Assembly: GCA_963528045.1 (NCBI GenBank)
Contig: CAURUA010000002.1
Span: 1,116-65,115 of the forward strand
Length of the DNA stretch: 64,000 bases
Direction: 5' to 3'
From: an uncultured Campylobacter sp.
GTDB taxonomy: Bacteria > Campylobacterota > Campylobacteria > Campylobacterales > Campylobacteraceae
Position numbers and translations under genes: made by a program. Below the pieces are notes generated by a model. It was not told the DNA's origin, searched no databases, and saw only the letters and a program-made list of their open reading frames with translations. Position 1 is the stretch's first letter; every line of letters starts with the position of its first letter. Positions 38,796 through 55,913 of this stretch are shown here, in pieces.

Positions 38796-39608
38796 ATGCT
38801 TAAATATTTAGAGCTAGGCGTTTGCGGCACGGATTTAAAGCCCTCGCATCCTTTTATTGGCTCGGCGATCAGGGGCGCTTTTGGATACGCTCTTAGAAAG
38901 GCGAGTTGTCCTTTCGTAAGTGCAAGCTGCGAGAAATGCGACATCTTCGGCGAATGCGTGTATAATGAATTTTTTGAAAATGTATCCGATACGCCAAATT
39001 TCAGGCTAGATATCGATCTTAATCAAAAGAGCTTTGATTTTAAAATTTTACTTTTCGAACATGCCGTGCGCTACCTGCCTCACGTCGCTATCGCTATTGC
39101 AAATATGCAAGAAATCGGGCTTGAGGTAAGTAGACGCAAGTTTAAATTTTCAAATTTTACTCTAAACGGCGAAATCGTAGAGCCTAAATTTCTACTTTCA
39201 AATGAGCCTGAGCTGCTAAATTTCACGCCCGATTTTGCTGCGGGCGATTATGAAATTTCGCTTCCTACCCCGCTTCGTATGAAGCAAAAAAACGTCCTCG
39301 TCCGTCGCGAGATCGACTTTAAGTCCTTTATTCGCCAAATCGCTATGAGATTTGAGAACATAACGGGCGATGCTATAGATAAATTCGAGGTAAAATTCCG
39401 CCGCTTCGAGCAGGATTTGCACTTTTACGACATCAATCGCTACTCAAACCGCCAGCACACTAAAATGCAATTTGGCGGCGTGATCGGACAGATGCGAGTT
39501 TTTGGGCTTGATGAGCGCTCGGTAAAGCTTTTGCAACTCGCTCAAATTACCGGAGTCGGCAAAAGCACGATTTTCGGACTAGGCAAGATAGGGGTGGCGC
39601 GGATTTAA
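38796..39608 (+). CDS. cas6: CRISPR-associated endoribonuclease Cas6
   Basis: GSAIRGAFG, Cys cluster CP-x4-CEKC-x5-C, C-terminal Gly-rich loop GVGKSTIFGLG; next to cas1. Confidence 0.9.
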   Translation: MLKYLELGVCGTDLKPSHPFIGSAIRGAFGYALRKASCPFVSASCEKCDIFGECVYNEFFENVSDTPNFRLDIDLNQKSFDFKILLFEHAVRYLPHVAIAIANMQEIGLEVSRRKFKFSNFTLNGEIVEPKFLLSNEPELLNFTPDFAAGDYEISLPTPLRMKQKNVLVRREIDFKSFIRQIAMRFENITGDAIDKFEVKFRRFEQDLHFYDINRYSNRQHTKMQFGGVIGQMRVFGLDERSVKLLQLAQITGVGKSTIFGLGKIGVARI

Positions 39609-39740
39609 ATTTCGCCGTGGATTGCGATGTGGAATTTAAATTGCACCGCGAGTCGCGGAGCGGATAAATTTGCCGTAGATTACGGTATCGGCGCATTTTA
39701 CGCGATATCTACTAGCTAAATGCAATGACGGGGAGGCGTT

Positions 39741-41936
39741 ATGTTTGATCTAAGTTTAGAGGATATTTTTACCGCAGGCGCCTTTGAATATGCCTTAAAA
39801 AGGCTAAAGCGCACGGCTTTGGGGCTTGATGGACTTAGCGCTGAGGATATTTGCTCGGGCGAATTTTATGCCGAGCTAAAGAGCGAAATTTTTAGCCTTT
39901 CTTATTCGCCCCAGCCCCTTAAGCGAGCATTTGTTCCTAAAGAAAACAAAGACGAGCTTCGCAAGCTAGCCATCCCCTCGCTAAAAGATAAATTTGCGCA
40001 AAATATCCTCACTCGCGAGCTTTCAGGCTATTTTGATAAAAACTTTTCAAACCGCTCTTATGCTTATCGAAACGGTAAATCCTATGCTAACGCTATCTTT
40101 CGCGCTCGTGATTTTTTTAAAATTTACGACTTCGCCGTCAAAACCGACATCAAAGATTTCTTTGAAAATATCGATCACAAAAAATTGCTTGAAATTTTAT
40201 GCGCAAATATCCGTGACGCTCGCATCATTAGGCTCATCGAGCTTTGGATCAAAAACGGAATTTTTGAGCGCTTTGATTACCGCGCTCATGCAAAAGGCGT
40301 TCATCAAGGAGACGTCCTAAGCCCGCTACTTTCGAATATTTATCTAAATCAGATGGATAAATTTTTAGAAAACTCGGGCGTAGAGTTCGTCCGATACGCC
40401 GATGATTTCGTTATGTTTTTTGCCTCGCAGAAAGCCGCCGAAATGGAGCTTGCGCGCCTAAAAGATTTTCTAAAAACGATAAGCCTATCGTTAAATGAAG
40501 CCAAAACCTCCATCTGCGGCAAAGATAGCGAATTTGTCTTTTTGGGCGTAAGCTTTAAGGGTGCAAATTTAAGCATCGGCGAGGAAAAATTTAAGCGCAT
40601 TCTAGCCAAACTCGCAAGCTCGGCGAAAAAGCAGGCGATAAGCCAAAGCTTAGAAAATTTAAACACCTATGTGTATCATCTAAAAGCCATTTCGCTTAAG
40701 CTTTTTTCGCCTTCGCAAAAAGATAGGTTTTGCTTGCATTTTGGCGAGGTCGTAACGAGCCTAATACGTAGATTTCTAAAAACTGCAGACAAGCGGACGC
40801 TAGCAGAAGCCTTAATCAACCTAAACTTCCCCTACGAGCTAGGCAAAACGGCTAGAAAGGCTAAAATTCTAACCTACTTCAAAAACGCCAAGCGTCCTGC
40901 CGTCAAATCCGTCCAAAACGCCCTTGAGGCCAAAAAGCGCGAATACCTAAAAACCTTCTCGCAAAACTCGATTATCCACATCACGACGCCGTTTTATTTC
41001 CTCGCTCTGTCGCAAGGGAAATTCGTCTTAAAAAGCAAAGGCGCTATCAAGCACAAATTCCCCATAAATCAAATCAGCCAGATCATCATCAACGCTCAAA
41101 TTTCGCTTAGCTCCGCCGTCATCAAAGAGTGCGCCAAAAAGAAAATTTCCATAAATTTTATCGACGAAAAGACAAATCTCAGCTACGCCACGCTCATTAG
41201 CGCAAATTCTGCCATACCCAAAACCGCCGCTTCGCAAATTTCGCTGCTAACGACCAAAAAATCACTCCGCATCGCCCAACAGTTCATCATCGGCAAGCTA
41301 AAAAATCAGATCAACTATCTAAAATATCTAGGCAAATACCATAAAAATATAGACGCCGAAATTAAAGCGATGCAAGAAATTTTAAAGCTCCGCGTCCCAG
41401 ACGCCGCAAGCGTAAGCGAGCTTCTGGGCTTTGAAGGAAGCGCCGCAAACTCCTACTGGCAGGCTATCGCAAAGGCGATCGACTACGAGTTTGGCTTTAG
41501 TGCGCGAGTGACGCAGGGCGCTACCGACGTCGTAAATTCCGCCCTAAACTACGGCTATGCGATCCTTTATTCAAAAATTTTAAAATCCATTACCGCCGCA
41601 GGTCTGTCGCCGCATGTATCCTATCTGCACGCGCTTGATGAGCAAAAGCCCACTCTCGCCTTCGATCTCATCGAGGAATTTCGAGCCTTCATCGTCGATC
41701 GCGCCGTAATCTCGATGGTCAATAAAAACGAGCCCTTTGAAATAAAAGATGGGCTCCTATCTGTCGCAACCAGGCAAAATATCGCTAAAAACGTAAATGA
41801 AAAGCTCTTCGCTTGCACGCAGTACAGAGGCGAACAGCTAAAAGCGCAGGATATCATAGATAGGCAAGCCTACGCCCTAAAACGCGCCGTAACCCAAAAC
41901 GAAAAATATAAGCCTTTCATCGGGAGATTTCAATGA
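39741..41936 (+). CDS. cas1: Reverse transcriptase-Cas1 fusion
   Basis: RT motifs LAIPSLKD, DIKDFFENIDH, GVHQGDVLSPLLSNIYL, RYADD, FVFLG. Cas1 motifs LGFEGSAANSYW, NSALNYGYAIL, YLH, LAFDLIEEFR. Confidence 0.95.
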   Translation: MFDLSLEDIFTAGAFEYALKRLKRTALGLDGLSAEDICSGEFYAELKSEIFSLSYSPQPLKRAFVPKENKDELRKLAIPSLKDKFAQNILTRELSGYFDKNFSNRSYAYRNGKSYANAIFRARDFFKIYDFAVKTDIKDFFENIDHKKLLEILCANIRDARIIRLIELWIKNGIFERFDYRAHAKGVHQGDVLSPLLSNIYLNQMDKFLENSGVEFVRYADDFVMFFASQKAAEMELARLKDFLKTISLSLNEAKTSICGKDSEFVFLGVSFKGANLSIGEEKFKRILAKLASSAKKQAISQSLENLNTYVYHLKAISLKLFSPSQKDRFCLHFGEVVTSLIRRFLKTADKRTLAEALINLNFPYELGKTARKAKILTYFKNAKRPAVKSVQNALEAKKREYLKTFSQNSIIHITTPFYFLALSQGKFVLKSKGAIKHKFPINQISQIIINAQISLSSAVIKECAKKKISINFIDEKTNLSYATLISANSAIPKTAASQISLLTTKKSLRIAQQFIIGKLKNQINYLKYLGKYHKNIDAEIKAMQEILKLRVPDAASVSELLGFEGSAANSYWQAIAKAIDYEFGFSARVTQGATDVVNSALNYGYAILYSKILKSITAAGLSPHVSYLHALDEQKPTLAFDLIEEFRAFIVDRAVISMVNKNEPFEIKDGLLSVATRQNIAKNVNEKLFACTQYRGEQLKAQDIIDRQAYALKRAVTQNEKYKPFIGRFQ

Positions 41937-42205
41937 ATTTAATCATCTGCTACGACGTTTGCAAAACTAAGCGCCGCAATAAGCTTGCCGCTTTGCTGGA
42001 AAGCTACGGGCTACGAGCGAATTATTCGGTATTCGAGCTAGACATTTCCGAGCGCGAATACGTCCTCATAAAAGACCGCATCGCGCGCATAATCGAGCCT
42101 AAAACCGACAAAGTCCTATTCTACCGCATCTGCAAAACCTGTATGGCTAAGAGCGAAAGCCTAGGCGAAGGCGAGATCTTTCGTTCCCCTGGCACCTACG
42201 TCTAA
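41933..42205 (+). CDS. cas2: CRISPR-associated Cas2
   Basis: IICYDV...RRNKLAALLESYG.RANYSVFE; C-terminal CKTC. Confidence 0.95.
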   Translation: MNLIICYDVCKTKRRNKLAALLESYGLRANYSVFELDISEREYVLIKDRIARIIEPKTDKVLFYRICKTCMAKSESLGEGEIFRSPGTYV

Positions 42206-42636
42206 GTCCCATTTTTAGGGATTTGATTTTCGGACTTTTCTTAAATTTAAAACCCCGAATTTAGCGCACTTTTATATTCTATTAAGCTTTAAAATGTCCG
42301 CAAAGCTTAAATTTCGCTCACACCAAAAACCCTTTCTCGGACTTCCGCTATTTAGCCTATTTTTAAAGCCCCATTTTTAGGGCTTTTTACGTTTGCGGAA
42401 TTTAGCAGAAATTCGAAAAAGCCTAAAATTTTAATTTTTGCGTTTAGATTTTCGGACTTTTGCGCTTGCGCAAAGACGCTTAAATCCACACTTTTAAGCC
42501 TGCCTTAAGCAAAAACTTCGAAATTTGAAATTAATTTTTCGCCCCTTTCTCGGACTTTTTCGCGTTTTGTGATATAATGGCGCTCGCAAATAGTTCTTTA
42601 AAAACTCATTGTCAATTTTAATGCGGTTTTTGGGCT
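42206..42636 (+). promoter_or_regulatory. CRISPR leader with extended -10 promoter
   Basis: AT-rich non-coding stretch; TGATATAAT at 42570-42578; repeated TCGGACTT motifs. Confidence 0.8.
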
Positions 42637-43816
42637 ATTTGATTAGAATTTCCCCGATCTAGGGGATTGAAACCTGTAAACGACCGCCTCCATAAACAGT
42701 CTTAATGCCATATTTGATTAGAATTTCCCCGATCTAGGGGATTGAAACACTTCCTTACTGAGAACGTCGAAAAAACGTTACCCGAACCGGATTTGATTAG
42801 AATTTCCCCGATCTAGGGGATTGAAACTATCATCTAGTATGCTAGTAATGAAGTCTAGGTCTAGGCTAATTTGATTAGAATTTCCCCGATCTAGGGGATT
42901 GAAACAGAAACATACTAAGCATAGTAAACTCCTTGAATTAATTTCATTTGATTAGAATTTCCCCGATCTAGGGGATTGAAACGCCGGTTTTCATAAACTC
43001 CTTAACGACTGAAGCGATAGGAAATTTGATTAGAATTTCCCCGATCTAGGGGATTGAAACAACCTTGTTGTTGATAGCCGCCATTCTGCTGGTTTTGAGG
43101 AGAATTTGATTAGAATTTCCCCGATCTAGGGGATTGAAACAAATCTTCTATGATTTTACCAGCTTTGGTGAAGCCATAGATTTGATTAGAATTTCCCCGA
43201 TCTAGGGGATTGAAACCTTTTATTCAAAACCTTTGCAGCTTCCACAGAAGCTCATTTGATTAGAATTTCCCCGATCTAGGGGATTGAAACGAAAAATGGA
43301 ATTCCCGCTCAAGATGCAACTCATCGAGCATTTGATTAGAATTTCCCCGATCTAGGGGATTGAAACAACCAGCTCTGTTTTTGAGCTTTGAATTACTTAG
43401 ATCGCATTTATTTGATTAGAATTTCCCCGATCTAGGGGATTGAAACGAGCTGACTTCCTTAGAATGATAGAATCTAAGCAGAGCTTTAATTTGATTAGAA
43501 TTTCCCCGATCTAGGGGATTGAAACACAACTAGTTATTGTCTTTCCATATTAGAGTTAGCCAGTTCTTTATTTGATTAGAATTTCCCCGATCTAGGGGAT
43601 TGAAACCTCCTACTCCACTCTAGTCTAGTCTCCCAGTTACTCTTATATTTGATTAGAATTTCCCCGATCTAGGGGATTGAAACTTACCTCACATTGAGGT
43701 ATCAGCGACAAATACGATGGTGCAATTTGATTAGAATTTCCCCGATCTAGGGGATTGGGACAAACGGGTTTTGCCTCGGATAATGCTGTGTGATCACGCT
43801 GATTTGATTAAATTTC
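42637..43816 (+). CRISPR. CRISPR array: 37-nt repeat ATTTGATTAGAATTTCCCCGATCTAGGGGATTGAAAC, 14 perfect + 1 variant repeat + terminal remnant, 15 spacers of 37-44 nt
   Basis: Repeats start at 42637, 42712, 42791, 42869, 42946, 43024, 43104, 43180, 43254, 43330, 43410, 43489, 43570, 43647 and 43725 (ends GGGAC). Remnant ATTTGATTAAATTTC at 43802. CCCC/GGGG stem and ATTGAAAC 3' end. Confidence 0.99.
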
Positions 43817-43864
43817 AAGATATACAACTAAAATTTAATGGATTTTTTAAAAGCACTCCGTAAA

Positions 43865-43909
43865 TTGACAGAATTTGACAACTAAACTCCCTATAATCAC
43901 GCCCAAAGT
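43865..43909 (+). promoter_or_regulatory. Promoter copy 1: TTGACAGAATTTGACA-N11-TATAAT
   Basis: Tandem TTGACA at 43865 and 43875, TATAAT at 43892; 32/45 gapless identity with 45601-45645. Confidence 0.7.
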
Positions 43910-43983
43910 TGATATGGCGGGTTTGAATTCTATGAATAATTTTGTTATTTTTCGAAAAAGAATTTTAAAACAAAGGAGAAAGT

Positions 43984-44589
43984 ATGAAAATTTTGTTTAA
44001 AGTGTTTTTGCTTGGTTTGATCGGAGTTATGTTTTCCGGTTGTTTTATCGTAATGCCGCCTGATAAAGAAACGGTAATGGCTCAGCAGCTAGATGTTTGG
44101 TGTATCCTTAGAGAGAATAAGGATAAGGAAAGATATGAGGAATCTATACGTAAAGCAAAGTCGTTCCTTGATAAAGATAAGTATGGAGATAGAGTTCAAA
44201 TAGCTCCGAGAGGAGAGTATAGCGTTTCGCTATTAGATAGAGCTTTTAGTGGTGACAATCACCCGGGACTATACTGGCGTGAGTATGGTTTGGTATATAA
44301 GCCGATAACTTGCGACAGAGAAAATAAAAAGCTTAACATGGTTGTAGAAATCACACCTCATAAAGTTAAAGCTCAGAATGAGAAAGATGGAAAAAACGAA
44401 GACGCTTATACCTTTATTAACTTTTTAAAAGAGCGAACGGCTCAATTGCTTTATTCCTCTAAGGAGATCGGAGAGCTAATGGAGTTAGGCTCATCACTCG
44501 ATTTAATTTTTATTGATTATGAAACAAGGAAAGAGATCGATAAAAGTACTTATGATTTTGCGGGTTACAAAGCGTATAATGAAAAGTAG
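43984..44589 (+). CDS. Uncharacterised lipoprotein
   Basis: AAGGAG RBS; signal peptide II MKILFKVFLLGLIGVMFSG-C. Confidence 0.8.
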   Translation: MKILFKVFLLGLIGVMFSGCFIVMPPDKETVMAQQLDVWCILRENKDKERYEESIRKAKSFLDKDKYGDRVQIAPRGEYSVSLLDRAFSGDNHPGLYWREYGLVYKPITCDRENKKLNMVVEITPHKVKAQNEKDGKNEDAYTFINFLKERTAQLLYSSKEIGELMELGSSLDLIFIDYETRKEIDKSTYDFAGYKAYNEK

Positions 44590-44753
44590 GTATAAGTTCA
44601 ACTACCTGACAAGTGATTATCGAGTATTCGCCGCGAGAATTAAATAAGATAGCTAATTTTTGCTTTGCTTCAATTGGAAAGCGATGTGACAGATAGAATA
44701 ACCGGCTTTTCAAATTACCCGATTGTTTGTAAATTTAAAGGAAGGAAAATGTT

Positions 44754-45407
44754 ATGAGAACACTGTTTTTAGTATTAATTGCTCTATTTTTAATAGGATG
44801 TGTAGAACCGGACCCGGAAAGCTACTATGGAAGGGTTAATAGAAAAGATGAGTTTACGAGCAACTTTCAAAGCAGAAGGCTTGCTAACGAGCTAATCGTC
44901 TTATTTGATATGGGCGAAAAATCTCAATATGGAAACGATTACTTTGATAATTCGCTTAAGATAGCCGATTACGAAAACGATGTAAAGCTTTCAGAAGTTA
45001 AAAGCTTTTTAGCTTCAAAAGGAGCTGCGCCGTTACGCGTTTATGAACGTGCGGTTAAAAGTAGCGGCAAGAATAAGTTTAAGAGATATTCGGGCAGGCT
45101 GAATGCCGAAGTCGCTTCTCTCGTTCCTTTCGACACTCAGTTTCGAAAGGCGCAAAAGAACTGCTTTGATGGCACTTCCCTATGCTTATTTAACGAATTT
45201 CCTTTGCTAACCGAAACGGATGTGGAAGGAGATATGGCTTCAATGATGATAAATTTTGTTGAAGTAAAATCGGCTTTCAATAACTATCAAGATGGCTTTA
45301 CGCCAGTAAAGATCATCATCCATACCGCAACTTATACCGGTGCGAAGCTCAACGCTATCTTAAGTAAAATTCCGAAAAAAGCATTTGAAAATAATGAGTT
45401 AAACTAA
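44754..45407 (+). CDS. Uncharacterised lipoprotein
   Basis: AAGGA RBS; signal peptide II MRTLFLVLIALFLIG-C; Cys pair CFDGTSLC. Confidence 0.8.
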   Translation: MRTLFLVLIALFLIGCVEPDPESYYGRVNRKDEFTSNFQSRRLANELIVLFDMGEKSQYGNDYFDNSLKIADYENDVKLSEVKSFLASKGAAPLRVYERAVKSSGKNKFKRYSGRLNAEVASLVPFDTQFRKAQKNCFDGTSLCLFNEFPLLTETDVEGDMASMMINFVEVKSAFNNYQDGFTPVKIIIHTATYTGAKLNAILSKIPKKAFENNELN

Positions 45408-45484
45408 ATAAGAGAGTCGGATGAATGAGCTAGAATGGCTCAATAAATATGGCTTTTGCTAGGAATGATTTTAGGTGGCGAGGG

Positions 45485-45573
45485 ATTCGGTTAGAATTTC
45501 CCCGATATAGGGGATTGGTTTCTCTTTACATACAAAATTTTCAATCTATCCTCCTGATTTAATTAAAATTTCC
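45485..45573 (+). CRISPR. Degenerate mini-array (repeat - 35-nt spacer - half repeat)
   Basis: ATTCGGTTAGAATTTCCCCGATATAGGGGATTGGTTT (30/37 to consensus, stem intact), spacer 45522-45556, then ATTTAATTAAAATTTCC (15/17 to the repeat 5' half). Confidence 0.75.
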
Positions 45574-45600
45574 ATCTCATTTTTCAAGGTTTCCCCTTGG

Positions 45601-45645
45601 CTGACAGAATCTGACACTATGGCTCACTATAATTGCGTTCAAAGT
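45601..45645 (+). promoter_or_regulatory. Promoter copy 2: CTGACAGAATCTGACA-N11-TATAAT
   Basis: Same geometry as 43865-43909, including CAAAGT 6 nt after the -10. Confidence 0.7.
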
Positions 45646-45685
45646 CGGAGGTAAAACGCCGACGAGATCAATTAAAGGGGTTGTA

Positions 45686-45858
45686 ATGAAAAAGATTGCG
45701 TTGTCGCTAGCAGCGGCTGGAGTTATGAGTGGCGCTTTAGCGCAAGAGGTGCCGAATTAGCCAATATCGCACCGAGCAATTACGGCTCGTACGTCCCTAC
45801 GCTTAATTTTTACGTCAAAGGCAAGGATATAACGAACAGTGCGTCTTTTGCGATTTGA
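45686..45858 (+). pseudogene. Remnant of an exported-protein gene
   Basis: RBS AAAGGGG. MKKIALSLAAAGVMSGALA-QEVPN* (45686-45760) is a clean Sec signal peptide; a shifted frame continues AELANIAPSNYGSYVPTLNFYVKGKDITNSASFAI*. Confidence 0.55.
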
Positions 45859-45937
45859 AGGAGATCTATTTTATATTACTTTTATTAAAAATAGGTGCGA
45901 GAAGTAAATATATTTTAAGCAAATAAAAAATAATCTA

Positions 45938-45973: not shown

Positions 45974-47605
45974 ATGGCGAAATACCTTTACGGCGCGAGT
46001 ATCCAGGGTATACAAGAGTATATTTACGCCACGAACAAGTTGCAAGAGATCATCGGTGCCAGCGAAATAATAGATTCGCTCAGACAAAAATTTGATGAAA
46101 AAAAGGATTACGGCGAGATATACGCTGTTTTTGATAAACTAAGAGAAAACGACTTAGTGGAGCAAATTTTGCTTAACGCGGCGGGAAATTTTAGAGCGAT
46201 TGTAGATGGCGAGGAAAATTTAAAAAAGATCGTCAGGGATCTGCCTAAAAAGATAATGCAAAATGCTTACGGCATTACCATTTCTCAGGCTACCGCTCCT
46301 TATAATGACAACGACTACGAAACGGCGTCGAAAGAGCTTGAACAAAAGCTAAAAACTCAGCGCAACCGCCCGAGCTTGCCGCTTGATATGAGTATAAATT
46401 TTATGGCTCTTGCACCGAAAACGGCGCGACCTATCGTGAAATTTGACGACGCCTTAGATATATCGTGCGATCAAAAGAGGAAGGCGCACGGAAGGTGGGC
46501 TGAAAAACGCCGCAAAGAATATGAGGAAAAATGTAAAAAATGCATAGGGCCAGAGGAGTCCGACAAAATTCCATTCTTAGAATTGAAAGAATTCAGCGAG
46601 ATTTCAAACGATAAGAATAAACTAGCCGTTATCCACGCAGACGGCAACGGGCTTGGCGTGCTGGTTAAAAATCTAACGGACGAAGTAAAAAATACGGGCA
46701 AATTAGACGTGATAGCTAATTTTTCAAAAGCGCTTGATAATGCTACGAAAGATGCTTACGAAAATGCCATAGCAAAAACCAAGGAAGTTTTCGGCAAAGA
46801 TGATCTAAAGATAAAAGCGCTAATTTTAAGCGGCGACGATATGACGGCGGTTTGCGATGCAGACATAGCGTTAGAATTTACTAAAAATTTCATCGAGGGA
46901 TTTGAAAAGGAAACGGACAATAAAAAGCCCGATATAAAGGAAAAGCTCACGATGTGTGCGGGGATTGCTTATTGTAACGAAAAATTCCCATTTCATTATG
47001 CGGCAGGCCTAGCCGAGGAGCTTTGCGGTGCGGCGAAAAAGCATAGCAAGGATCGCTACGTAAATGATGCCGAAAAAGACATAGCGCCAAGCTGCTTAAT
47101 GTTTCATAATATCCAGAGCTCAAATTTTCAAAGCTGGGATAAATTTATAAAAGATGAACTGACGATCGGGGGCGAAAAAGAAGGATGCGCGGCCGATGGC
47201 AAAAACACTAGCGAAATCAGATGCGATTTCGGACCTTATTATTTAGGCGATACGAACAAATCAAAAAGCGAGCCAAAGGTAGAAAATTTTGTAAATTTAG
47301 TCGAAATGTATCGCGGCGAAAAAAGCCCCAAGGGCAAACTGCGAGAGTGGATAAAGGAGCTCGGTATAAACGATAGATTAGCCAAAGTTATGCTTGATAG
47401 AATAAATGAAATTCTAGAAAACAAAAGTGAATTCGATAAGGCTCTGAAGGCTCTTTACGGCGAGTTGTCGTGCGGAAATTTGATTTTAGAAAAGGACGGA
47501 GCGCAAAAAACGCCGATTTATGACGTATTGCAATTTCTCTCCGTTACTTCGAGCACAGAAGATAAAAAAGCGGAGGGCAAAAATGACGATAAATTACGAG
47601 CTTAA
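45974..47605 (+). CDS. cas10: Cas10, short HD-less form
   Basis: SIQGIQEYIY...IGAS palm-1, AVIHADGNGLG, ILSGDD cyclase motif, CAGIAY...FPF; no N-terminal HD domain. Confidence 0.92.
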   Translation: MAKYLYGASIQGIQEYIYATNKLQEIIGASEIIDSLRQKFDEKKDYGEIYAVFDKLRENDLVEQILLNAAGNFRAIVDGEENLKKIVRDLPKKIMQNAYGITISQATAPYNDNDYETASKELEQKLKTQRNRPSLPLDMSINFMALAPKTARPIVKFDDALDISCDQKRKAHGRWAEKRRKEYEEKCKKCIGPEESDKIPFLELKEFSEISNDKNKLAVIHADGNGLGVLVKNLTDEVKNTGKLDVIANFSKALDNATKDAYENAIAKTKEVFGKDDLKIKALILSGDDMTAVCDADIALEFTKNFIEGFEKETDNKKPDIKEKLTMCAGIAYCNEKFPFHYAAGLAEELCGAAKKHSKDRYVNDAEKDIAPSCLMFHNIQSSNFQSWDKFIKDELTIGGEKEGCAADGKNTSEIRCDFGPYYLGDTNKSKSEPKVENFVNLVEMYRGEKSPKGKLREWIKELGINDRLAKVMLDRINEILENKSEFDKALKALYGELSCGNLILEKDGAQKTPIYDVLQFLSVTSSTEDKKAEGKNDDKLRA

Positions 47606-48137
47606 ATTTTTCGACTACTGGCACGTCAGCAGCGGCCTTAGCGGCGGAGCAGCGCTTGATAGCTACGTGGTAAAAGACTCCGCAGGCTTTCCATATGTGC
47701 CAGGCAAAACCATAAAAGGACTCGTGCGTGAGGCGGCGGAGCTATTTTGGGATCAGGGCGATATAGATAAGTGCTTCGGTTCTAGAGGCAGCAAAGTGGA
47801 GCAAAAAGATAACGACGATACTACGCAGGCACAGTGTTATTTTAGCAGCGCTACGATAGATGAAAAAATCGCTGCCGAAATTACGTCAAATAACTTGCAG
47901 CGCAATCTTTTTGAAATCATTTCGGCTACCAAAATCGACGACAACGGCATTGCGGTAGATAATTCGCTAAGAGATATAGAGGTGGTTTTACCTATGAGTT
48001 TAAAAGGCGAGATAAGAAACGTAAACGACGAAATCGCGCAAAATTTAAAACGTGCGCTAGAGATGATAAAGCGGATGGGGCTAAACCGCAACCGAGGCCT
48101 CGGCAGATGCGAATTTAAAGTTAAGGAGCTACGATGA
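47583..48137 (+). CDS. Cas7-group RAMP (Csm3-like)
   Basis: WHVSSG...ALD, PYVPGKTIKGLVRE, MGLNRNRGLG; start at ATG 47583. Confidence 0.9.
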   Translation: MTINYELKFFDYWHVSSGLSGGAALDSYVVKDSAGFPYVPGKTIKGLVREAAELFWDQGDIDKCFGSRGSKVEQKDNDDTTQAQCYFSSATIDEKIAAEITSNNLQRNLFEIISATKIDDNGIAVDNSLRDIEVVLPMSLKGEIRNVNDEIAQNLKRALEMIKRMGLNRNRGLGRCEFKVKELR

Positions 48138-49534
48138 GAGAGCTTAGATTTGAGATAACTTTTAAAAGTCCCGTTATTTTGCAGGCAAGCTCCAATACGC
48201 AGGGCAAGATGAGCTCGCTTGATTTTATCCCGGGAAGTGCATTTTTGGGTATGGCGGCTAGCAGATACGGCGAGTTTAGCGATCCTTTTAAAATTTTTCA
48301 TAGCGGTGCGGTAAAATTTTGCGATGCCGCGCCGATCAAAGACGGCAAAGAATTTTTTAAAATTCCGTTTTCCTATTTTCACGAAAAGCTCGATAGCAGC
48401 AAAATTTATAACCACCATCTGTTATGCAAATATAAAGATGAGGAGCGGAACAAATTTGACGATTTTACCCAGCTAAAACAGATGCGAAGCGGCTATATAA
48501 ATGACAAAAAAGAAAAACTTAGCCTAAAATATGAATATTCTCAAAAAAGCGCCTACGATAAAGAAAAAAGACGCTCTATGGATAGTCAGATGTACGGCTA
48601 TGAGGCGTTTAGGGCCGGAATGAAATGGCGATTTAGCGTTAAATTTGAGCCTAGCGTGAGCGAAGACGACATCAGTCGCGCAAAAGAAACGCTAGAGCGC
48701 TCAACTAGGCTCGGCAAATCAAAAAGCGCCGAGTATGGGGCGGTAGAGATTAAATTTATAGGCGAAAATACGGATGAAATCCAAAGCTTTACGCCGCCTG
48801 AGGGATATACTTTCGTTTATGCCAAATCCCGTCTTGCGTTAATCGATGAAAACGGCAATCCGAGCTATGACGTAAAATATATTTTGCCAAGCTTGGACGC
48901 GAATAATGTCGATTATGAAAAGACGCAGATTAGAATTTCAAATTTCACCCCTTATAACGGCGCCCGTAGTACGAAAGACTACGAGCGAGCCTGCATAAAC
49001 AAAGGCAGCGTCATTGCTTTAAAGAATTTAAGTGCCGAGCAGATAGCCGCGCTAAAAAACGGCGTCGGAGCGTATTTGAGCGAGGGTTTTGGCCAAGTGC
49101 TGATAAATCCGTGGTTTTTAGACGGCGGTGACGCGAAGAATAACCCGATAGAATTCCAAAAAGAAGCGCAGACTGAACGCTTGATTAAAGAAATACCGAT
49201 GCAAAGTGATTTGGCTAAATTTTTAAAACAAAAGCAGACCATGAAAGACCAAGCTCTTGAAATAGCCGAGAGGGTGGCTGATTTTATAGAAAGCCATAAA
49301 GATAAATTTAGCAAAATTTCAAAATCGCAATGGGGCGCAATAAGGGCGCTTTGTAAATCAAGCGCAGATATTCAAAAAGATGTGGGTGAATTTATAGGCG
49401 AAGGTGTTGAAAAAGATAAATGGAGCGACGCAAAAGAAACGCTCCTAGAAGCTATTGAAAAAAGTAGAGACCCGCTTAAATTTGCTCTACTTTTATCAAT
49501 GCAAATGCCAAAAATCACAGGAGAAAAGCAATGA
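48134..49534 (+). CDS. Cas5-group RAMP (Csx10-like) with probable C-terminal small-subunit (Cas11-like) domain
   Basis: DFIPGSAFLG, LGKSKSAEYG, GVGAYLSEGFG, then a ~110-aa helical tail with ISKSQWGAIR. Confidence 0.8.
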   Translation: MRELRFEITFKSPVILQASSNTQGKMSSLDFIPGSAFLGMAASRYGEFSDPFKIFHSGAVKFCDAAPIKDGKEFFKIPFSYFHEKLDSSKIYNHHLLCKYKDEERNKFDDFTQLKQMRSGYINDKKEKLSLKYEYSQKSAYDKEKRRSMDSQMYGYEAFRAGMKWRFSVKFEPSVSEDDISRAKETLERSTRLGKSKSAEYGAVEIKFIGENTDEIQSFTPPEGYTFVYAKSRLALIDENGNPSYDVKYILPSLDANNVDYEKTQIRISNFTPYNGARSTKDYERACINKGSVIALKNLSAEQIAALKNGVGAYLSEGFGQVLINPWFLDGGDAKNNPIEFQKEAQTERLIKEIPMQSDLAKFLKQKQTMKDQALEIAERVADFIESHKDKFSKISKSQWGAIRALCKSSADIQKDVGEFIGEGVEKDKWSDAKETLLEAIEKSRDPLKFALLLSMQMPKITGEKQ

Positions 49535-50874
49535 AAAGATTTTTAGCGCACGTCGTCATAGAAGCCAAAACTCCGTTAAAAGTCGGCGGCGGCAAAAATG
49601 ATCTATTTTTGGATGCACCGGTGCAAAGAGATTGGAACGGCTTGCCGATGATTTTAGGCACTTCGGTTGCAGGGATTTTGCGCAGGGCGTTTGAAGATCG
49701 CAAGGGCGAAGATGATACAAATGAAATTTTCGGTACGAAAGACGAACAAGATCCAAATAAACAAAAAGGCTCAAGACTAATTATCTCAAACGCTCTGTTG
49801 CTCGTCGATAAGCATAACAAGGTTTGCGAAGAGTTGCTTTTAGAAAAGAGCGAGTTTTTGCGACTTTTTGATATTTTGCCTATTAGAGATCATGTAGCCA
49901 TAGGCGCGAACGGCGCAGCGAAAGATGCAGGCAAATTTGACGAAGAAGTCGTATTTAAAGGCACTAGATTTAAATTCTCGCTTGAGCTTGACGGAAGCGA
50001 AGAGGAGTTTAAGAAAATTTTAAATTTGCTTTGTGATCCTACGCTAAGGCTTGGCGGCGGAAGCTCGAAAGGCTTTGGCTCGCTTGGAATTTCAGAGATA
50101 AAATGGGGCGAGTTTGAGCCGGACAGATACTCTAACAGTTTAAATTTTAGCTCCAATGGGTTTGCGAAATTTACGCCCGATAGCGCAGCGGACGGTAATT
50201 TGAAAAGACATATCAGATACGAACTTAAAATTTCACCCGATGATTTCTTTATGTTTGGAAGCGGTTTTGGCGACAAGGATGCGGATCAAACGCCGGTGCT
50301 TGAGAGCGTGATAGACTATGAAAACAAATGCCTCAGCAAACGTAAAATTCTAATCCCGGTAAGTTCAGTAAAAGGCGCATTATCGCACCGAACGGCGTTT
50401 CATTTTAATAAAATCAATAAACAATTCGGTGAAAAAGCCAAGGTCGGCAGTGAAAACGAAGCCGTAAGGGAAATTTTCGGCTACGAAAAGAATAAAAACA
50501 ATAAAGGCGCCAAAGGCAAAATTTTAATCAGTGATTGCTTTTTGGATTACGACGAAGCAAAAGATATGAAGGTCTTCGAACACGTTAGCATCGACCGCTT
50601 CACGGGCGGCGCGATAGACAGCGCCTTATTTCAAGAAAAGGCAGTCGCAAAAAGAGACGAATTTATAATAGAAATTTTGCTTAGAAACGACGTGTGCGGT
50701 GACAAAGAGAAAGAAAAAACTTTTAATAATGCATTAGAGGCTTTTGAGGCGACTTTAGACGACGTAGTCGAAGGGCGCTTGTCGCTTGGTGGAGCAACCA
50801 CAAAAGGGTATGGATTTTTCAAAGGCAAGGCCTTAAAATACAACGAAGGACGGATCGAAAATGAAAAAAAATAG
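49531..50874 (+). CDS. Tandem Cas7-Cas7 RAMP
   Basis: Two RAMP units: TPLKVGGG...GTSVAGILR...LGGGSSKGFG and FMFGSG...SSVKGAL...HVSIDRFTGG...LGGATTKGYG. Confidence 0.88.
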   Translation: MKRFLAHVVIEAKTPLKVGGGKNDLFLDAPVQRDWNGLPMILGTSVAGILRRAFEDRKGEDDTNEIFGTKDEQDPNKQKGSRLIISNALLLVDKHNKVCEELLLEKSEFLRLFDILPIRDHVAIGANGAAKDAGKFDEEVVFKGTRFKFSLELDGSEEEFKKILNLLCDPTLRLGGGSSKGFGSLGISEIKWGEFEPDRYSNSLNFSSNGFAKFTPDSAADGNLKRHIRYELKISPDDFFMFGSGFGDKDADQTPVLESVIDYENKCLSKRKILIPVSSVKGALSHRTAFHFNKINKQFGEKAKVGSENEAVREIFGYEKNKNNKGAKGKILISDCFLDYDEAKDMKVFEHVSIDRFTGGAIDSALFQEKAVAKRDEFIIEILLRNDVCGDKEKEKTFNNALEAFEATLDDVVEGRLSLGGATTKGYGFFKGKALKYNEGRIENEKK

Positions 50875-51346
50875 AGACGAAATTTTAAAATACGTGAATG
50901 AAAATTTAAAAGGCTACGAGGGCTACATCCAGCTAATAGGTGAAAAAATCGACGAAAAGCACTTGTTTTTAGCGGGTGAGCGAACTCCTAGTCTAGGCGA
51001 AGACGAGCTTATTTATGAGGCGCATTTCTTTGATGAGAAGTCCAAAAAGAGCGTTTCTATCCGCCAGATAAACGACGCTTGGTTTGTCGATGAGACAGAG
51101 TTGGGGGGCGCAAATTTATATCCGAAGAAAAATCCCGACATAAAAGAATTTCACTCTAAATTTAAACCTGAGTTTTCTGCCAAATTCAAAGAAGTCAAAA
51201 TAAAAATGGCTCAAATTTGGCAAGATGAAAAAGACGAGTTTTGCGAAGTGCCTCAAGATAATGGAACTCTTGAGGGTTTGCCAGTGTTGAAGCTTCAAAA
51301 GATAGTATTTGTGGGCTTTGCAAAAAATGAAAAGGATAAAAAATGA
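50861..51346 (+). CDS. Csx19-like type III-D subunit
   Basis: Small protein between Cas7 genes; GYEGYIQ, IYEAHFF, C-terminal VFVGF. Confidence 0.7.
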   Translation: MKKNRDEILKYVNENLKGYEGYIQLIGEKIDEKHLFLAGERTPSLGEDELIYEAHFFDEKSKKSVSIRQINDAWFVDETELGGANLYPKKNPDIKEFHSKFKPEFSAKFKEVKIKMAQIWQDEKDEFCEVPQDNGTLEGLPVLKLQKIVFVGFAKNEKDKK

Positions 51347-53490
51347 TAACCGCTCCATATAATTTTGTGCCACTAAACGATAAAATTTTCTACCCGCCGT
51401 GGGCTAGCGAGGATACTCTTAAAAACATCCACGACGTGCCGTTTGAAGATGGCGAAAGCGGCGTAATTGAGCTTGAAGTAACCGCCAAAAGTCCTATTTT
51501 TATAAAGGACGGCAAAAATCCGAGCGAGTTTTGCCATTTCGGCGATGAAGAGTATTATATCCCGGCAACCAGCATAAAAGGTATGATAAGAAATGTACTT
51601 GAGATAATGAGCTTTTCGGCCATGAACTTTATAGATGATAAAAAGTATTCTATGCGGGATTTTACGGACGAATACAAAAATAAAGTCCTAAAAGATATTA
51701 AATGTGGCTGGCTTTATAAAGAGAATGGTGCAATAAAGATAAGAGAATGCGACGGAATTTATCGCATAAAGTATCAAGAGATAGAATATAAATTTAAGAA
51801 ACAAGGTTATAGAAATCGCTTTTTGTGGGGCAACTTTGATGATAAAAACGATCCACTTAAAAACGCTTGCGCCAAATATGATTTAGTCAAATTTGAAAAT
51901 GTAGATAAAATTTATAATTTTTCAAAAGAGGGGTCTAAAAACGGTAGAAATATAGTGAAATTTGATGACAGAGGCTCGTTATTAGGTAAAGTTGTGTTAA
52001 CAGGACATCCGTCGGCTAGAAAAGACGATAAGGTAAACCCAAGTGGGAAAAATTATGATTTTGTCTTTATGCAAAAACAAGATGCGAAAATTTTTAATGT
52101 AAGTGAGCGTGTGTTTGAAGTGTTTAAATTTGCTTATTTTGACGGCAGGAAAAAGCAGCCCGTGCAGTCTGCCGACTGGACTTTCTGGAAAGAAAAACTA
52201 AAAAGTGGCAAAGAAATCCCCGTGTTTTTTCATGCTAACGGCAATGAGGTCATTCATTTTGGGCTTTCTTATCTTTATAAATTACCTTTTGATAAATCCG
52301 TAAAAGAGGTCTTGGCTCATACACAAATAAAAGAGAGTAAGCCCGATTTATCAGAAATTATATTTGGATATAGTAGAAAAATTAAAAATAAACAAGAGTC
52401 CTTAAAAGGAAGGGTTTTTGTATCTCACGCCAAAGCTATCCAAAATGTAAATTTAGGCAATGAGGTAAAAGTAGTCTTGGGTTCCCCAAAAGCATCTTAT
52501 TATCCGATTTACATAAAGCAAAATGGCGAAAAATACGCTACTTATAATGATAGAAATGCCACACTATCTGGTTTTAAGCGATACCCGACGCATAAAGGTC
52601 AAAGCGTCGCTACAAGTGATACTGGTGATAAAACAGCAAATATAGAAACAGCTATCACGCCACTTCAGTCGGGAGCAAAATTTAGATGCAAAATATTAGT
52701 CCATAATCTCTTGCCTATTGAGATTGGAGCATTGCTATCAGCTATTACATTTCATCAAAACGATCTTTGCTATCATTCTATCGGTATGGCGAAGCCTTTA
52801 GGATATGGCAAAATTAAACTCAGCGTCTTAGACCTCAATGGATTTAGCAAAGAAGTTAAGGAGTATTTAAAGGATTTTGAGTCGGCTATGAACGGTGAAA
52901 TTTTCGACGGCAAGATAAAATGGCACGAAAGCGAGCAGATAAAAAATTTATTTTCAATGGCTAGCGAGCAAGACAACGAAGGTAATTCTGAATTGGTATA
53001 TATGAATCTTGAAGATTTTGCAAAAAGTAAAAATAGCGATCGTCGCTATTATTTGGATAGGTATATTAAACTTACAAATGTAAATACGGTACAGGCAGTT
53101 CCATTATCCGATCAACAAAGTATATCGTCATATCAAAAATTTGCAAACGATCTAATAGAAAAAGAGAAGGCCTTAAAAGAGGAAATAGAACTTCGAAGGA
53201 AAGAAAAAGAGCTACAAGAAGCTACAAGCAATATGAGCGAACTGGATAAAAGAATTTATAAGCTCAAAAACGATCCCATTTACAAAAATATGCCCGAAGC
53301 GACAGTCTTATTTAAAGCGATAAGTCAAACCGATAAATTTGACGATATGAAATTTGAAGCGCTTTGTGGGTTAAGAGACATGTTTAAAAAGATTGGAAGA
53401 TGGAAAGAACAGACCAAGCAAAAAAGGCCGGAAAAAGACAGAGACTATCAAGATACGTTAAAGATAATGGAGATGCTAAAGGAATTTTAA
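51343..53490 (+). CDS. Cas7 with large insertion (TIGR03986-like)
   Basis: APYNFVPL, IPATSIKGMIRNVLEIMS, LKGRV, LGSPKASY, GFKRY, IGMAKPLGYG. Confidence 0.9.
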   Translation: MITAPYNFVPLNDKIFYPPWASEDTLKNIHDVPFEDGESGVIELEVTAKSPIFIKDGKNPSEFCHFGDEEYYIPATSIKGMIRNVLEIMSFSAMNFIDDKKYSMRDFTDEYKNKVLKDIKCGWLYKENGAIKIRECDGIYRIKYQEIEYKFKKQGYRNRFLWGNFDDKNDPLKNACAKYDLVKFENVDKIYNFSKEGSKNGRNIVKFDDRGSLLGKVVLTGHPSARKDDKVNPSGKNYDFVFMQKQDAKIFNVSERVFEVFKFAYFDGRKKQPVQSADWTFWKEKLKSGKEIPVFFHANGNEVIHFGLSYLYKLPFDKSVKEVLAHTQIKESKPDLSEIIFGYSRKIKNKQESLKGRVFVSHAKAIQNVNLGNEVKVVLGSPKASYYPIYIKQNGEKYATYNDRNATLSGFKRYPTHKGQSVATSDTGDKTANIETAITPLQSGAKFRCKILVHNLLPIEIGALLSAITFHQNDLCYHSIGMAKPLGYGKIKLSVLDLNGFSKEVKEYLKDFESAMNGEIFDGKIKWHESEQIKNLFSMASEQDNEGNSELVYMNLEDFAKSKNSDRRYYLDRYIKLTNVNTVQAVPLSDQQSISSYQKFANDLIEKEKALKEEIELRRKEKELQEATSNMSELDKRIYKLKNDPIYKNMPEATVLFKAISQTDKFDDMKFEALCGLRDMFKKIGRWKEQTKQKRPEKDRDYQDTLKIMEMLKEF

Positions 53491-53492
53491 AA

Positions 53493-54288
53493 ATGACGCA
53501 TTACGAAAAAAGAAATTTTCAAAAAATAATCGTTTCGCTTTTGGGAAGTTCTCTTTTAGGGTATAGGGCGTTTTTTATCATCGCGGGAGTATTGCTGTTT
53601 TTCGCTTGGTTGCCGGACGGAATGTCGTCGCTACTAGATAAAATTTTCGGCGGCGAAATTTTAAAATGGAGCGCCAAAGACGGCACTATGCTGGTTCAAA
53701 TTTTAGGCTCTATAGTGATTTTTGGGGTAATCAAACGAATAATTCCCAAAGGCATCCCTAATGTCGATATAGATATAAATGATAGACCCAAAAGGGCTAA
53801 AGTTCTAGTGCTATTTTTAAGCGAAAATAATAGCGGAATAGAAGAAATTTTGAAATTTAAAACTATCGATGAGTATGGAAGAAATAATTATAGAATGCCG
53901 CTAAAAGCGATAGATTATCACAAACAAAGACTTAAAAAGATTATAGTCGCTTGTTCCGAAAAATCTCACGGAGATAGAGAGAAATTTTTAAAATGCGTGC
54001 AAAATCTCTTTAGTAAGGAGCTTGCGGATATGACAAATGTACGATGTATAAAGAATTTCGAAGACGCAAAAAGCGTCTATAAATTTTTTAGAAAGCGTAT
54101 ATAGCCAGCTTAAGTAAGAGGGTTTTATAGAGGACGACATCGTATTTGATGTCACGGGAGGACAAAAGGCGATAAGTATAGCCGGAGCGATGTTTGCGAT
54201 ACCCAACGACAGGCATTTGCAGTACGTCTCCACTAGCGATTATATTGTCAAGCACTATGATTTAACTTATATGCAAAATGAGGAGTAA
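53493..54288 (+). pseudogene. Two-TM + CARF membrane effector (Cam1-like), broken by a frameshift and a stop
   Basis: Two N-terminal TM helices, Rossmann-like VLVLFLS strand. Extra T in T6 at 54084-54089 and in-frame TAA at 54115; the restored frame reads IVFDVTGGQKAISIAG...LQYVS to the stop at 54288. Confidence 0.8.
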
Positions 54289-54291
54289 AAT

Positions 54292-55536
54292 ATGAAAATT
54301 ATAACGATTTTAGGCTTAATTTCAAAAAATGAAGAAATCGGAATTCCTATTTATAGATATGACGATAAGCTTAAAGGCTCATTTTCTTTAAAAAGAGAAC
54401 GATATATAAATATGTTTTCGCTCTTAATAGATAATTTTGGAGCTCAAGATATTGTTCCTATTTTTACGCAATTGGCTAAAAAAATTCAAATCGGTGTTTT
54501 GAAAGAAGAGTTTCAAAATGAGTATAATGAAATCTTTAACGATAGAAATTTTATTGACGGTGAGAAGGACTTCTATAAAATTTTACGCATCATAAACGAT
54601 GCTACTAGCGATGATGACAAATATATAATTGATCTGACCCATGGTTTTAGGCATATACCTATATTAGCGACTATATCATTAATATCAAAAAGCCTAAGCA
54701 ATACAGAAAAAATCAAACATATATTTTTTGCGAAAGAGATAGAACCGAAAAAGGAGTATGAAATAATTGACCTAAAGGAATATCTAGAGCTTGCAAATAT
54801 GTCGTATGTACTAGAAACTTTTAATCATAATTACACGGTTTCATTGGTTTCTAAATTTAAAAATAAGAATTTTTGCAACCTTGTAAGTCGGTTATCAACC
54901 ATCTCTAATCATATACTATCGAATTCGCTAAAAGCTCTTAATAAAGATGTCGATAAAATTCTAAGCGATATAGATTTTATTTTAAAGAATGAGCAAATAG
55001 AAACTTTTAAAGGCAGTCTTGAAGATATACAACGACACATAAGGGAGCTTCAAGAAATAGGTAAAGAAAAAGATTCCATAAAATTTTATAGAATGTCTAG
55101 AATTCTAAACTCCAAAGGTTATTTATTAAACGCTATAACTTTGCTATTTGAGGCCATAGGATATTACTGCGCGGAAAGCTTTGAGTGCTTTGGCGACGAT
55201 ATAAAAGCGCATATAAATAACTTTAAAAACAGTAGAAAATTTAATGCTTATGATTTGACACATGAGTCTAGGACCATTGTAAAAAAAATGGGATTGAGGA
55301 ATGGAGCCTATTTAACAAGCATTGCAGTGCATGATAATATACAAAAGAAGTTAGAAAGCATAAAAACTCTTGGTGCCTTTAGGGATTTTATAAAAGATGC
55401 CGAAAAATTAAGAAATAATCTAGCTCATGGTAATGCCAACGAAAGGATAGAAGACTCAAAGCAAGAGTTATCAAGATTATTAGATAAATATAATTCATTT
55501 TGTATACAGCAAAATATATTGGGAAATAAAATATGA
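54292..55536 (+). CDS. CARF-HEPN ribonuclease (Csx1/TM1812-like)
   Basis: IITILG first strand, DLTHGFRH CARF motif, C-terminal RNNLAH HEPN motif. Confidence 0.88.
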   Translation: MKIITILGLISKNEEIGIPIYRYDDKLKGSFSLKRERYINMFSLLIDNFGAQDIVPIFTQLAKKIQIGVLKEEFQNEYNEIFNDRNFIDGEKDFYKILRIINDATSDDDKYIIDLTHGFRHIPILATISLISKSLSNTEKIKHIFFAKEIEPKKEYEIIDLKEYLELANMSYVLETFNHNYTVSLVSKFKNKNFCNLVSRLSTISNHILSNSLKALNKDVDKILSDIDFILKNEQIETFKGSLEDIQRHIRELQEIGKEKDSIKFYRMSRILNSKGYLLNAITLLFEAIGYYCAESFECFGDDIKAHINNFKNSRKFNAYDLTHESRTIVKKMGLRNGAYLTSIAVHDNIQKKLESIKTLGAFRDFIKDAEKLRNNLAHGNANERIEDSKQELSRLLDKYNSFCIQQNILGNKI

Positions 55537-55913
55537 AAACCTTCTTTACGTTGATAAACCACACCTTGACGTCGGAGCAAGAAGAGGACGCGAGGAGGAA
55601 TTTAAATGTCGATAAATTCGTAAATATAACCGATGCGAGGTGGAGCGATATTGACCCGTCTGAAAAAAGCACAATAAAATTCGTTGAAGTGTATAAGGAT
55701 AAACTTAAAAAGCAAGCAAAAGCGGGCGACGTGTTACTGGTGCAGGGCGATTTCGGAGCGACTTATAATATGATAAGGTTTGCTAAAAATATGGGTCTGA
55801 TAGCCGTGTATGCGACCACCAACCGCATCGTAAGCGAGCAGGTAGAAAACGGCAAAGTCGTGATTAAACGAGAATTTAAACACGCAAGATTTAGAGAATA
55901 CGAGGAGTTATAA
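55533..55913 (+). CDS. csx20: Csx20-like protein, predicted ring nuclease
   Basis: LINHTLTSEQ, WSDIDP, LLVQGDFGATY, VYATT.R, F.H.RFREY. Confidence 0.78.
   Translation: MKTFFTLINHTLTSEQEEDARRNLNVDKFVNITDARWSDIDPSEKSTIKFVEVYKDKLKKQAKAGDVLLVQGDFGATYNMIRFAKNMGLIAVYATTNRIVSEQVENGKVVIKREFKHARFREYEEL

Follow-up and report, generated by a model that had tools for sequence, protein, structure and literature searches.

Envelope-protein genes behind duplicated array ends in a Campylobacter type III-D CRISPR locus, and their possible kinship with conjugative elements targeted by its spacers

Membrane-linked accessory genes of type III CRISPR loci are known (PMC6546367; 10.1101/270033, in the parts dealing with accessory genes), and orphan sfx lipoprotein genes on integrative mobilizable elements have been proposed to be defensive (PMC11493245, in its passages on these genes). 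The locus analysed here stands close to both. It lies in a 64,000-nucleotide stretch of DNA (hereafter the window) from an uncultured Campylobacter sp. (assembly GCA_963528045.1, contig CAURUA010000002.1, positions 1,116 to 65,115), taken from contig C2 of a genome of 2.06 Mb and 47% GC. Two lipoprotein genes, L1 and L2, and the remnant of a gene for an outer-membrane protein (OMP) are found there between the array and the effector genes of a CRISPR-Cas locus.

As in the type III accessory systems, these are non-core, membrane-associated genes, kept stably in a III-D locus and, as it seems, transcribed together with the effector genes. The accessory proteins presented in the relevant parts of PMC6546367 and 10.1101/270033 are, however, integral membrane or CARF proteins, whereas L1, L2 and OMP are exported proteins that match no CARF domain and no PADLOC model; the terms 'lipoprotein', 'signal peptide' and 'outer membrane' occur 0 times in the main texts of the two papers. 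With Sfx of the IncC/IncA plasmids and with the orphan sfx genes, the locus shares a lipoprotein of a plasmid family placed in a chromosomal element devoid of its own transfer genes, and a proposed defensive use against F-type conjugative plasmids (PMC11493245, same passages). It differs from them in that L2 showed no similarity to Sfx by plasmid tblastn and hidden Markov models (HMMs), an indirect comparison, in that L2 is not adjacent to traN, and in that the carrier of L1 and L2 is a CRISPR-Cas locus whose spacers match the same class of elements, exclusion being here a predicted function.

A type I-D locus with standalone repeats also resembles the present arrangement, with repeats beside cargo upstream of the effector operon and empty versions in relatives; its cargo is a toxin-antitoxin pair or a regulator and its spacers have targets in promoters, whereas the Campylobacter locus is of type III-D, with no target found for such spacers, a fixed cargo and a duplicated promoter predicted to bind protein. 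A literature search, covering few subscription journals, returned no description of this arrangement or of exclusion genes inside CRISPR loci. CRISPR cargo and domesticated plasmid genes are each of a known kind, and nothing is unusual in the duplication as such; what is surprising, and can be tested, is the link between the cargo and the targets of the spacers.

Duplicated array ends and a conserved promoter motif

The genes of the locus are ordered cas6, RT-Cas1, cas2, leader, array, L1, L2, orphan repeat, short open reading frame (ORF), cas10, csm3, csx10, csm3-csm3, csx19, large RAMP, TM-CARF, Csx1, Csx20 and WYL, all on the forward strand. The presence of Cas10, Csx10 (the Cas5 of III-D), Csx19, several Csm3 RAMPs and an RT-Cas1 fusion identifies it, at the level of protein families, as a type III-D system with RT-Cas1. 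The array (42637..43724) has 14 exact 37-nt repeats (42637-43683) and spacers of 37-44 nt, and follows a leader (42206..42636), predicted because it comes after cas2 and agrees with the polarity of the repeats. Given the repeat polarity and the position of the leader, the L1/L2 cassette sits at the trailer, or old, end of the array.

The initial annotation had described one architecture occurring twice in this interval (a variant repeat with an altered 3' handle, a spacer, a half repeat, a 45-bp promoter and a gene for an exported protein), and every one of these features was recovered. Unit 1 (43725..43816) comprises a terminal repeat that is 35/37 identical to the consensus and ends in GGGAC, a relic spacer (43762-43801) and a half repeat from 43802. 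Unit 2 (45485..45574) has an orphan repeat at 30/37, ending in GGTTT, a relic spacer (45522-45556) and a half repeat from 45557. The half repeats are there, although as weaker matches, at 12/18 gapless for the first (15/16 by eye, allowing one deleted base) and 15/18 gapless for the second. After 46 nt in unit 1 and 27 nt in unit 2 comes the motif, copy 1 at 43866..43910 with TGACA-N5-TGACA (43866-43880), 11 nt and TATAAT (43892-43897), and copy 2 at 45602..45663 with its boxes at 45602-45616, TATAAT at 45628-45633 and a short inverted repeat in the 5' untranslated region (45644-45663), which was read by eye. The 45-mers 43866-43910 and 45602-45646 are identical at 32/45 positions; 40 shuffled 45-mers, run over the window, reached 29 at best. 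The third ORF of the architecture has only 24 aa and starts at 45686. The two relic spacers are unrelated (6/35), so that the duplication must be old.

Relatives were compared through a table of 29 genomes in which the motif and the locus are visible, 17 from the genus of the window (g1) and 12 from a second genus (g20); the table does not include g1 genomes whose III-D loci are more distant, or in which short contigs show nothing more than cas10 fragments. In 5 of the 17 g1 genomes, unit 2 keeps two repeats and a spacer, which makes it a relic array end. Both the motif and the arrangement are conserved across the two GTDB genera, and the cargo consists of envelope proteins, in agreement with the initial annotation. 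TGAC-N6-TGACA-N11-TATAAT is invariant across six lineage variants, the 11-nt spacer between varying. The pattern is present in 12 of 142 g20 genomes, always at the CRISPR locus (0 for a reversed-pattern control), and in 16 of 77 other g1 genomes; a motif scan of five more distant III-D loci of the same genus found no copy. A standard sigma-70 scan lists neither site; a weight matrix built from the six variants and run over the 2.06-Mb genome gave the two motif copies as top sites (28.7 and 27.1), the next scoring 15.4. A weak match (14.5, fourth best in the genome) lies at 38593-38625, about 200 nt upstream of cas6, and may be due to chance. A genome-wide regulon was rejected, the genome of the window having only two strong sites.

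Ten g20 genomes have a single motif copy, and read array, 96-97 nt, motif, a 222-aa OMP (intact in nine, fragmented in G319), then cas10 or TM-CARF. In G242, one repeat is followed by the motif and then by cas10, with no cargo between, and in G051 the array is joined directly to unit 2 and followed by the motif, the OMP remnant and cas10. Because G242 has the motif before cas10 without cargo, and because the single-copy relatives run array-motif-OMP-cas10, the motif is best read as a predicted promoter of the cas10 effector operon, with tandem transcription-factor boxes just upstream of the -10 hexamer, and copy 2 as the putative promoter of an OMP-cas10 operon; the earlier suggestion of a promoter dedicated to the cargo is not supported.

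The spacing of the motif matches what we take to be that of PafBC promoter elements. The WYL activator SiwR acts at the -26 promoter region (PMC10693628, in the part on this promoter); the present locus likewise encodes a WYL-WCX protein, and its proximal box is found 16-12 nt upstream of the -10 hexamer, but the SiwR site is a palindrome and the motif a direct repeat. The WYL-WCX protein is a candidate regulator of the motif and an OmpR-type regulator an equal candidate; the WYL gene and the motif occur together because of shared inheritance. Outside the family, a 301-genome sample of the order gave four motif matches, none near cas genes, three of which adjoin ORFs read by eye as response regulators. 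A conserved motif, presumably a cas-operon promoter with a candidate WYL regulator, is defined by this analysis.

Cargo proteins, conjugative elements and spacer targets

The make-up of the L1 and L2 pair was identical in all 17 lipoprotein-bearing loci among the 29 genomes, despite about 30% divergence in cas10: both motifs were seen with L1 and L2 in 15 genomes, and part of the cassette at a contig end in two more. No other gene was found behind the duplicated motif in the 29 genomes. Among 23 metagenome L2 loci, 18 are in the CRISPR arrangement and carry the same cassette as far as each contig reaches, four (L143-L146) are without CRISPR and one (L142) is mixed and probably chimeric. The slot is mostly not variable, and the comparison of array-to-cas10 intervals gave no support to a cargo that is routinely swapped behind one promoter. 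As for exchange by recombination between repeats, gain and loss bounded by repeats do occur, while routine swapping was not seen: in G051 the L1-L2 cassette is cleanly gone between repeats, and in G133 an unrelated 175-aa gene, without motif, lies directly between two full repeats. The G133 insert (L209:8354-8991) lies at the trailer end and is placed as a spacer would be, although it measures about 640 nt; its ORF is hydrophobic and comes with its own ribosome-binding site and a terminator-like hairpin, and Pfam, NCBIfam, PADLOC, phage tblastn and viral-contig searches gave no match to it.

L1 (43984..44589), a lipoprotein of 201 aa with the lipobox FSGC, gave a structure model with a predicted local distance difference test (pLDDT) score of 82, whose closest folds in the PDB were 3npd (Z 9.9, root-mean-square deviation (rmsd) 3.9, 111 aligned residues) and 4ftf (Z 8.9, rmsd 3.6, 107 aligned). 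As modelled, L1 folds like the AspS/GspS-beta pilotins. It shares with these and with PA3611 (PDB 4ftf, 6i2v, 3npd) the nature of a lipoprotein and the same alpha/beta fold (Z 8.9-9.9), but differs by an identity of 8-12%, by about 80 extra residues and by the lack of a secretin gene in the CRISPR locus; by itself, this fold shows no function. The best match of L1 to viral structures had an E-value of 0.028 and was not significant, and a profile search over 1.84 billion representatives gave only five matches. L1 alleles are locally diverged (70-92%). In two of 118 g20 genomes (L080:9453-10076; L081:9194-9820), L1 homologues (about 40%) stand alone just upstream of the S10 ribosomal protein operon, without the motif.

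L2 (44754..45407), of 217 aa and with the lipobox LIGC, has no Pfam or NCBIfam family and no sequence relatives in the PDB, and its structure model (pLDDT 34) was unusable. L1 and L2 are not paralogues, no significant BLASTP alignment having been obtained, and have no further copies in the genome. The ratios of non-synonymous to synonymous substitutions are 0.10 for L1, 0.06-0.07 for L2, 0.10 for cas2, 0.05-0.11 for the intact OMP and 0.23 for an 83-aa OMP remnant; L1 and L2 are thus under purifying selection, like cas2. Their GC content (36-38%) is element-like, against 47% for the genome.

The third product, a 'truncated secreted protein' in the initial annotation, is truncated and begins like an exported protein; it was not recognised then that it is, by alignment with relatives, the start of an outer-membrane beta-barrel of 222 aa, a pseudogene in the window (45686..45858). 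The full protein has a signal peptide, a terminal Phe and a weak OMP_b-brl_3 match (E 1e-4, below the cut-off), and no sequence relatives in the PDB. It is intact in a sister clade (L147, L148, G333) and in g20, and cut to at most 83 aa in all 17 g1 loci (83 aa in most). It is the first gene of the effector operon in two genera. Within the 301 genomes searched, all 27 genomes with a match hold OMP in the CRISPR locus, apart from two exceptions, a full-length homologue on a conjugative contig and a weak partial match in G246 (32%, with a stop).

The four L2 loci without CRISPR carry L2 at 79-93% identity. Besides small genes of unknown function, they encode YopX, an HNH nuclease, a product resembling a replication protein and a Cys-rich protein of about 1,300 aa; their protein clusters occur on contigs up to 219-250 kb, and a 65% L2 cluster on contigs of as much as 250 kb. 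Homologues of five gene families of these loci (25-42% identity) are present on G271:C31, a 187-kb contig of 35% GC encoding TraC, L, E, K, B, V, two TraG, W, U, TrbC and a TraN-like protein, assignments that have significant E-values and scores below the NCBIfam curated cut-offs. Within this tra region, four genes after the TraN-like match, there is a homologue of OMP (36% over 213 aa, E 2e-38), and on the elements L2 lies five genes after the Cys-rich protein, to which a TraN label can be given tentatively. By homology to G271:C31, L143-L146 would be large F-type conjugative elements, either plasmids or integrated. The best-covered PLSDB relative of the G271:C31 TraC is 29% identical, and no L143-L146 element was found in 78 g1 genomes, 142 g20 genomes or PLSDB; viral-contig scans for L2, L1 and a 389-aa element protein found nothing. 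G271:C31 also carries a type IV-E CRISPR module (Csf2, Cas6, Csf3-Csf1, DinG; L236:8537-13726) and encodes DnaE, DnaB, RecJ, topoisomerase III, HU and SSB.

The 614 distinct spacers pooled from all loci examined were compared with 32.5 kb of L143-L146, at a threshold of at least 75% match. Thirteen matched, and 13/13 are antisense, which corresponds to the complementarity to invader transcripts of type III-D systems, while reversed spacers and 32.5 kb of host chromosome each gave 0/614. The best matches are 34/34, 36/38 and 37/40; spacer 8 of the window (43217..43253) matches L143 at 32/37, antisense to its 286-aa gene. All are in or beside two genes (183 aa; 286-298 aa), 12 in or at a gene and one just 3' of a gene, and several are antisense to ribosome-binding sites and start codons (L144:3956-3992; L143:4974-5013). 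The concentration on two genes and at start sites suggests acquisition from abundant transcripts. Two further spacers match the ssb gene of G271:C31 (32/35, 31/32). Self-targeting outside the array was found for 0/455 spacers at E 1e-4, and the window array had only three chance-level matches in a phage collection.

In a tree of L2 (31 rows, L142 left out), the element allele L143 is nested in the chromosomal g1 CRISPR clade A with 99/99 support, and mosaic blocks are shared between element and chromosomal alleles, both of which indicate that exchange was recent. Spacer-protospacer recombination as the route of capture was rejected: in L143, where a YopX gene follows L2, a relic spacer of unit 2 agrees with the beginning of that gene in no more than 26/36 positions, and in antisense orientation. 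The site upstream of the most-targeted element gene agrees with the CRISPR promoter boxes at 22/23 (G051 variant) and 20/23 (unit 1). Eight shuffles and a chromosomal control reached 17-19, a range that also takes in the remaining three promoter variants tested (17-18). This site is a palindrome, not a direct repeat, and is missing from G271:C31, and the resemblance can serve only as a lead.

Neighbouring genes and partial loci

Upstream of the array, the adaptation module extends over 38796..42205, with cas6 (PF10040), RT-Cas1 (PF00078 and PF01867) and cas2 (PF09827). Downstream of the OMP remnant, the effector genes cas10, csm3, csx10, csm3-csm3, csx19 and large RAMP occupy 45974..53490, and TM-CARF, a Csx1-type CARF-HEPN protein, Csx20 and the WYL-WCX protein 53493..56917, the last of these being encoded at 55913-56917. 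The TM-CARF gene (53493-54290) is interrupted by a change of frame and a stop codon; G051 has an identically shortened ORF, while the protein has 264 aa in other relatives. The effector genes are mosaic among close relatives (48134-55536 vs. L043-L051), the large RAMP having alleles of about 720 aa or 590 aa (43% identity) and Csx1 at least three alleles. Downstream of WYL in g20 (L204:13520-17743; L207:176-5206), there are one or two lipoprotein-like genes of about 200-220 aa, then a gene of about 1,190 aa, a layout that might, at a guess, be likened to an immunity-effector island.

Some loci have lost the genes from cas10 to large RAMP (L059, L060, L061 and L011 in g1; L204, L205, L207, L208, L214 and L215 in g20), and retain the array, TM-CARF, Csx1, Csx20, WYL and the cargo, some of those in g20 having also lost part of RT-Cas1 and cas2. 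L1 and L2 are intact, as far as contigs reach, in the four of 17 g1 loci with this deletion, and OMP is kept in six of 12 g20 loci with a similar loss.

Explanations of the arrangement and their weight

The ancestral locus may have read cas6-RTcas1-cas2-array-decayed trailer-promoter P-OMP-cas10...WYL, P being the effector-operon promoter, in which two TGAC(A) boxes, to be bound by a transcription factor, immediately precede the -10 hexamer. Another copy of trailer and P, diverged in sequence and bearing L1 and L2, would have come to lie in front in a single lineage, probably on one occasion, when repeats of two alleles of the locus recombined and set trailer-promoter-L1-L2 before trailer-promoter-OMP-cas10; the cassette would have been kept since, though cleanly deletable between repeats, as in G051. 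This structural and evolutionary part we regard as very probable. The L2 and OMP families are common to the locus and to large F-type conjugative elements whose transcripts the type III-D/RT-Cas1 system targets, and the captured envelope genes would hinder mating-pair formation or entry of those elements, as a surface-exclusion-like layer needing no crRNA and driven by a promoter of the type that serves the Cas10 machinery. Such a barrier is favoured because the proteins are predicted to be exported, from the lipoboxes of L1 and L2 and from the signal peptide and terminal Phe of OMP, because two of them are shared with targeted elements, because they are under selection without Cas10, and because orphan exclusion lipoproteins set a precedent; as a function, we put it forward tentatively. 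Taken as a whole, domesticated plasmid envelope genes beside an RNA-guided defence offer the best explanation at hand, itself a tentative one.

Several observations weigh against it. At E 0.01, tblastn against the 72,556 plasmids of PLSDB gave no match for L1, L2 or OMP, nor did they match exclusion-family HMMs in Pfam or NCBIfam, so that none is a recognisable TraT, Sfx or Eex. No L1 homologue was found on an element in the data searched, the only placed outside homologues being chromosomal, and G271 is without L1 or L2. Known exclusion genes adjoin traN or traG, whereas the element copies of L2 are surrounded by small genes of unknown function, and OMP was not seen in the 32.5 kb of L143-L146 examined. 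L143 begins 100 nt before L2, which, with the chimeric look of L142, makes assembly artefacts possible there; the L2 tree, being midpoint-rooted, is silent on which way the transfer went. In 17/17 same-genus loci OMP is a pseudogene, the cas genes are likewise GC-poor (41-44%), and the persistence of cargo where cas10 is deleted implies that it is not coupled to Cas10. The three proteins match no CRISPR or defence family in Pfam, NCBIfam or PADLOC. A role as type III ancillary effectors dependent on cyclic oligoadenylate (cOA) found no support, since PADLOC found no CARF, SAVED or other cOA-sensing domain in them in the very scan in which TM-CARF and Csx1 match strongly.

The main rival is an envelope role independent of CRISPR, which we consider doubtful: the cargo would serve as orphan immunity lipoproteins against competitor toxins, as a secretin-binding pilotin-like protein or in envelope maintenance, and would have settled downstream of a duplicated promoter, in a defence island prone to recombination, L2 being ordinary accessory cargo of the elements. 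The pilotin-like fold and locally diverged alleles of L1, its chromosomal homologues unlinked to cas, the survival of cargo after cas10 loss and the place of L2 among variable small genes all fit this; it leaves aside that two of the three cargo families are linked to the spacer-targeted class of elements, and that OMP comes first in the operon in two genera, with nearly all its matches in the CRISPR locus. A variable slot, with envelope cargo regularly exchanged between repeats behind its own promoter, as initially proposed, would account for the four states seen (L1 and L2 then OMP, OMP only, no cargo in G242, the 175-aa gene between full repeats in G133) and for the direct junction of array and unit 2 in G051, but is improbable given the same pair in 17/17 lipoprotein loci, the lack of motif in the G133 insert and the motif before cas10 when cargo is absent.

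Gene flow might also be reversed or mutualistic, the elements having taken L2 from the chromosome, or OMP and the lipoproteins helping elements to mobilise the locus. The nesting of L143 in clade A, the OMP homologue in a tra region and the patchiness of the locus (16/77 and 12/142 genomes with the motif) speak for this; the most divergent L2 alleles placed (79-82%) are, however, on elements, a 65% cluster occurs on contigs up to 250 kb, and the spacers are hostile to the elements, which leaves this possibility slightly less credible still than the variable slot. Finally, the variant repeat-spacer-half repeat units could be regulatory mini-arrays of the CreA/CreR type, guiding the effector to repress cargo or cas genes. 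Their architecture is like that of published mini-arrays with a degenerate distal repeat, but the same report, in the part concerned, judges type III mini-arrays to be degraded repeats (10.1101/2023.03.03.530964). No target of the relic spacers in the locus exceeded shuffled controls (best 22/40 and 23/35 vs. maxima of 24 and 23), and these spacers are not conserved between clades; a spacer partly complementary to a promoter of the locus and conserved in relatives, as in CreA/CreR systems, was hence not found, and this explanation is very improbable.

Beyond the preferred reading of domesticated plasmid envelope genes, a bolder version can be drawn, which we think rather unlikely. The type III-D/RT-Cas1 system would be specialised against little-described large F-type conjugative plasmids, whose envelope genes would have been domesticated as an innate exclusion layer under copies of the effector promoter; as the promoter boxes resemble the element site, plasmid entry itself could switch on both layers, and whole genes might also become fixed between repeats, as in G133.

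The present analysis links a chromosomal RT-Cas1/III-D system to large conjugative elements for which no close relative was found in PLSDB, and puts forward three envelope families, so far uncharacterised, as candidates for exclusion factors. It suggests how CRISPR loci might gain, from the very invaders that they target, a barrier independent of sequence.

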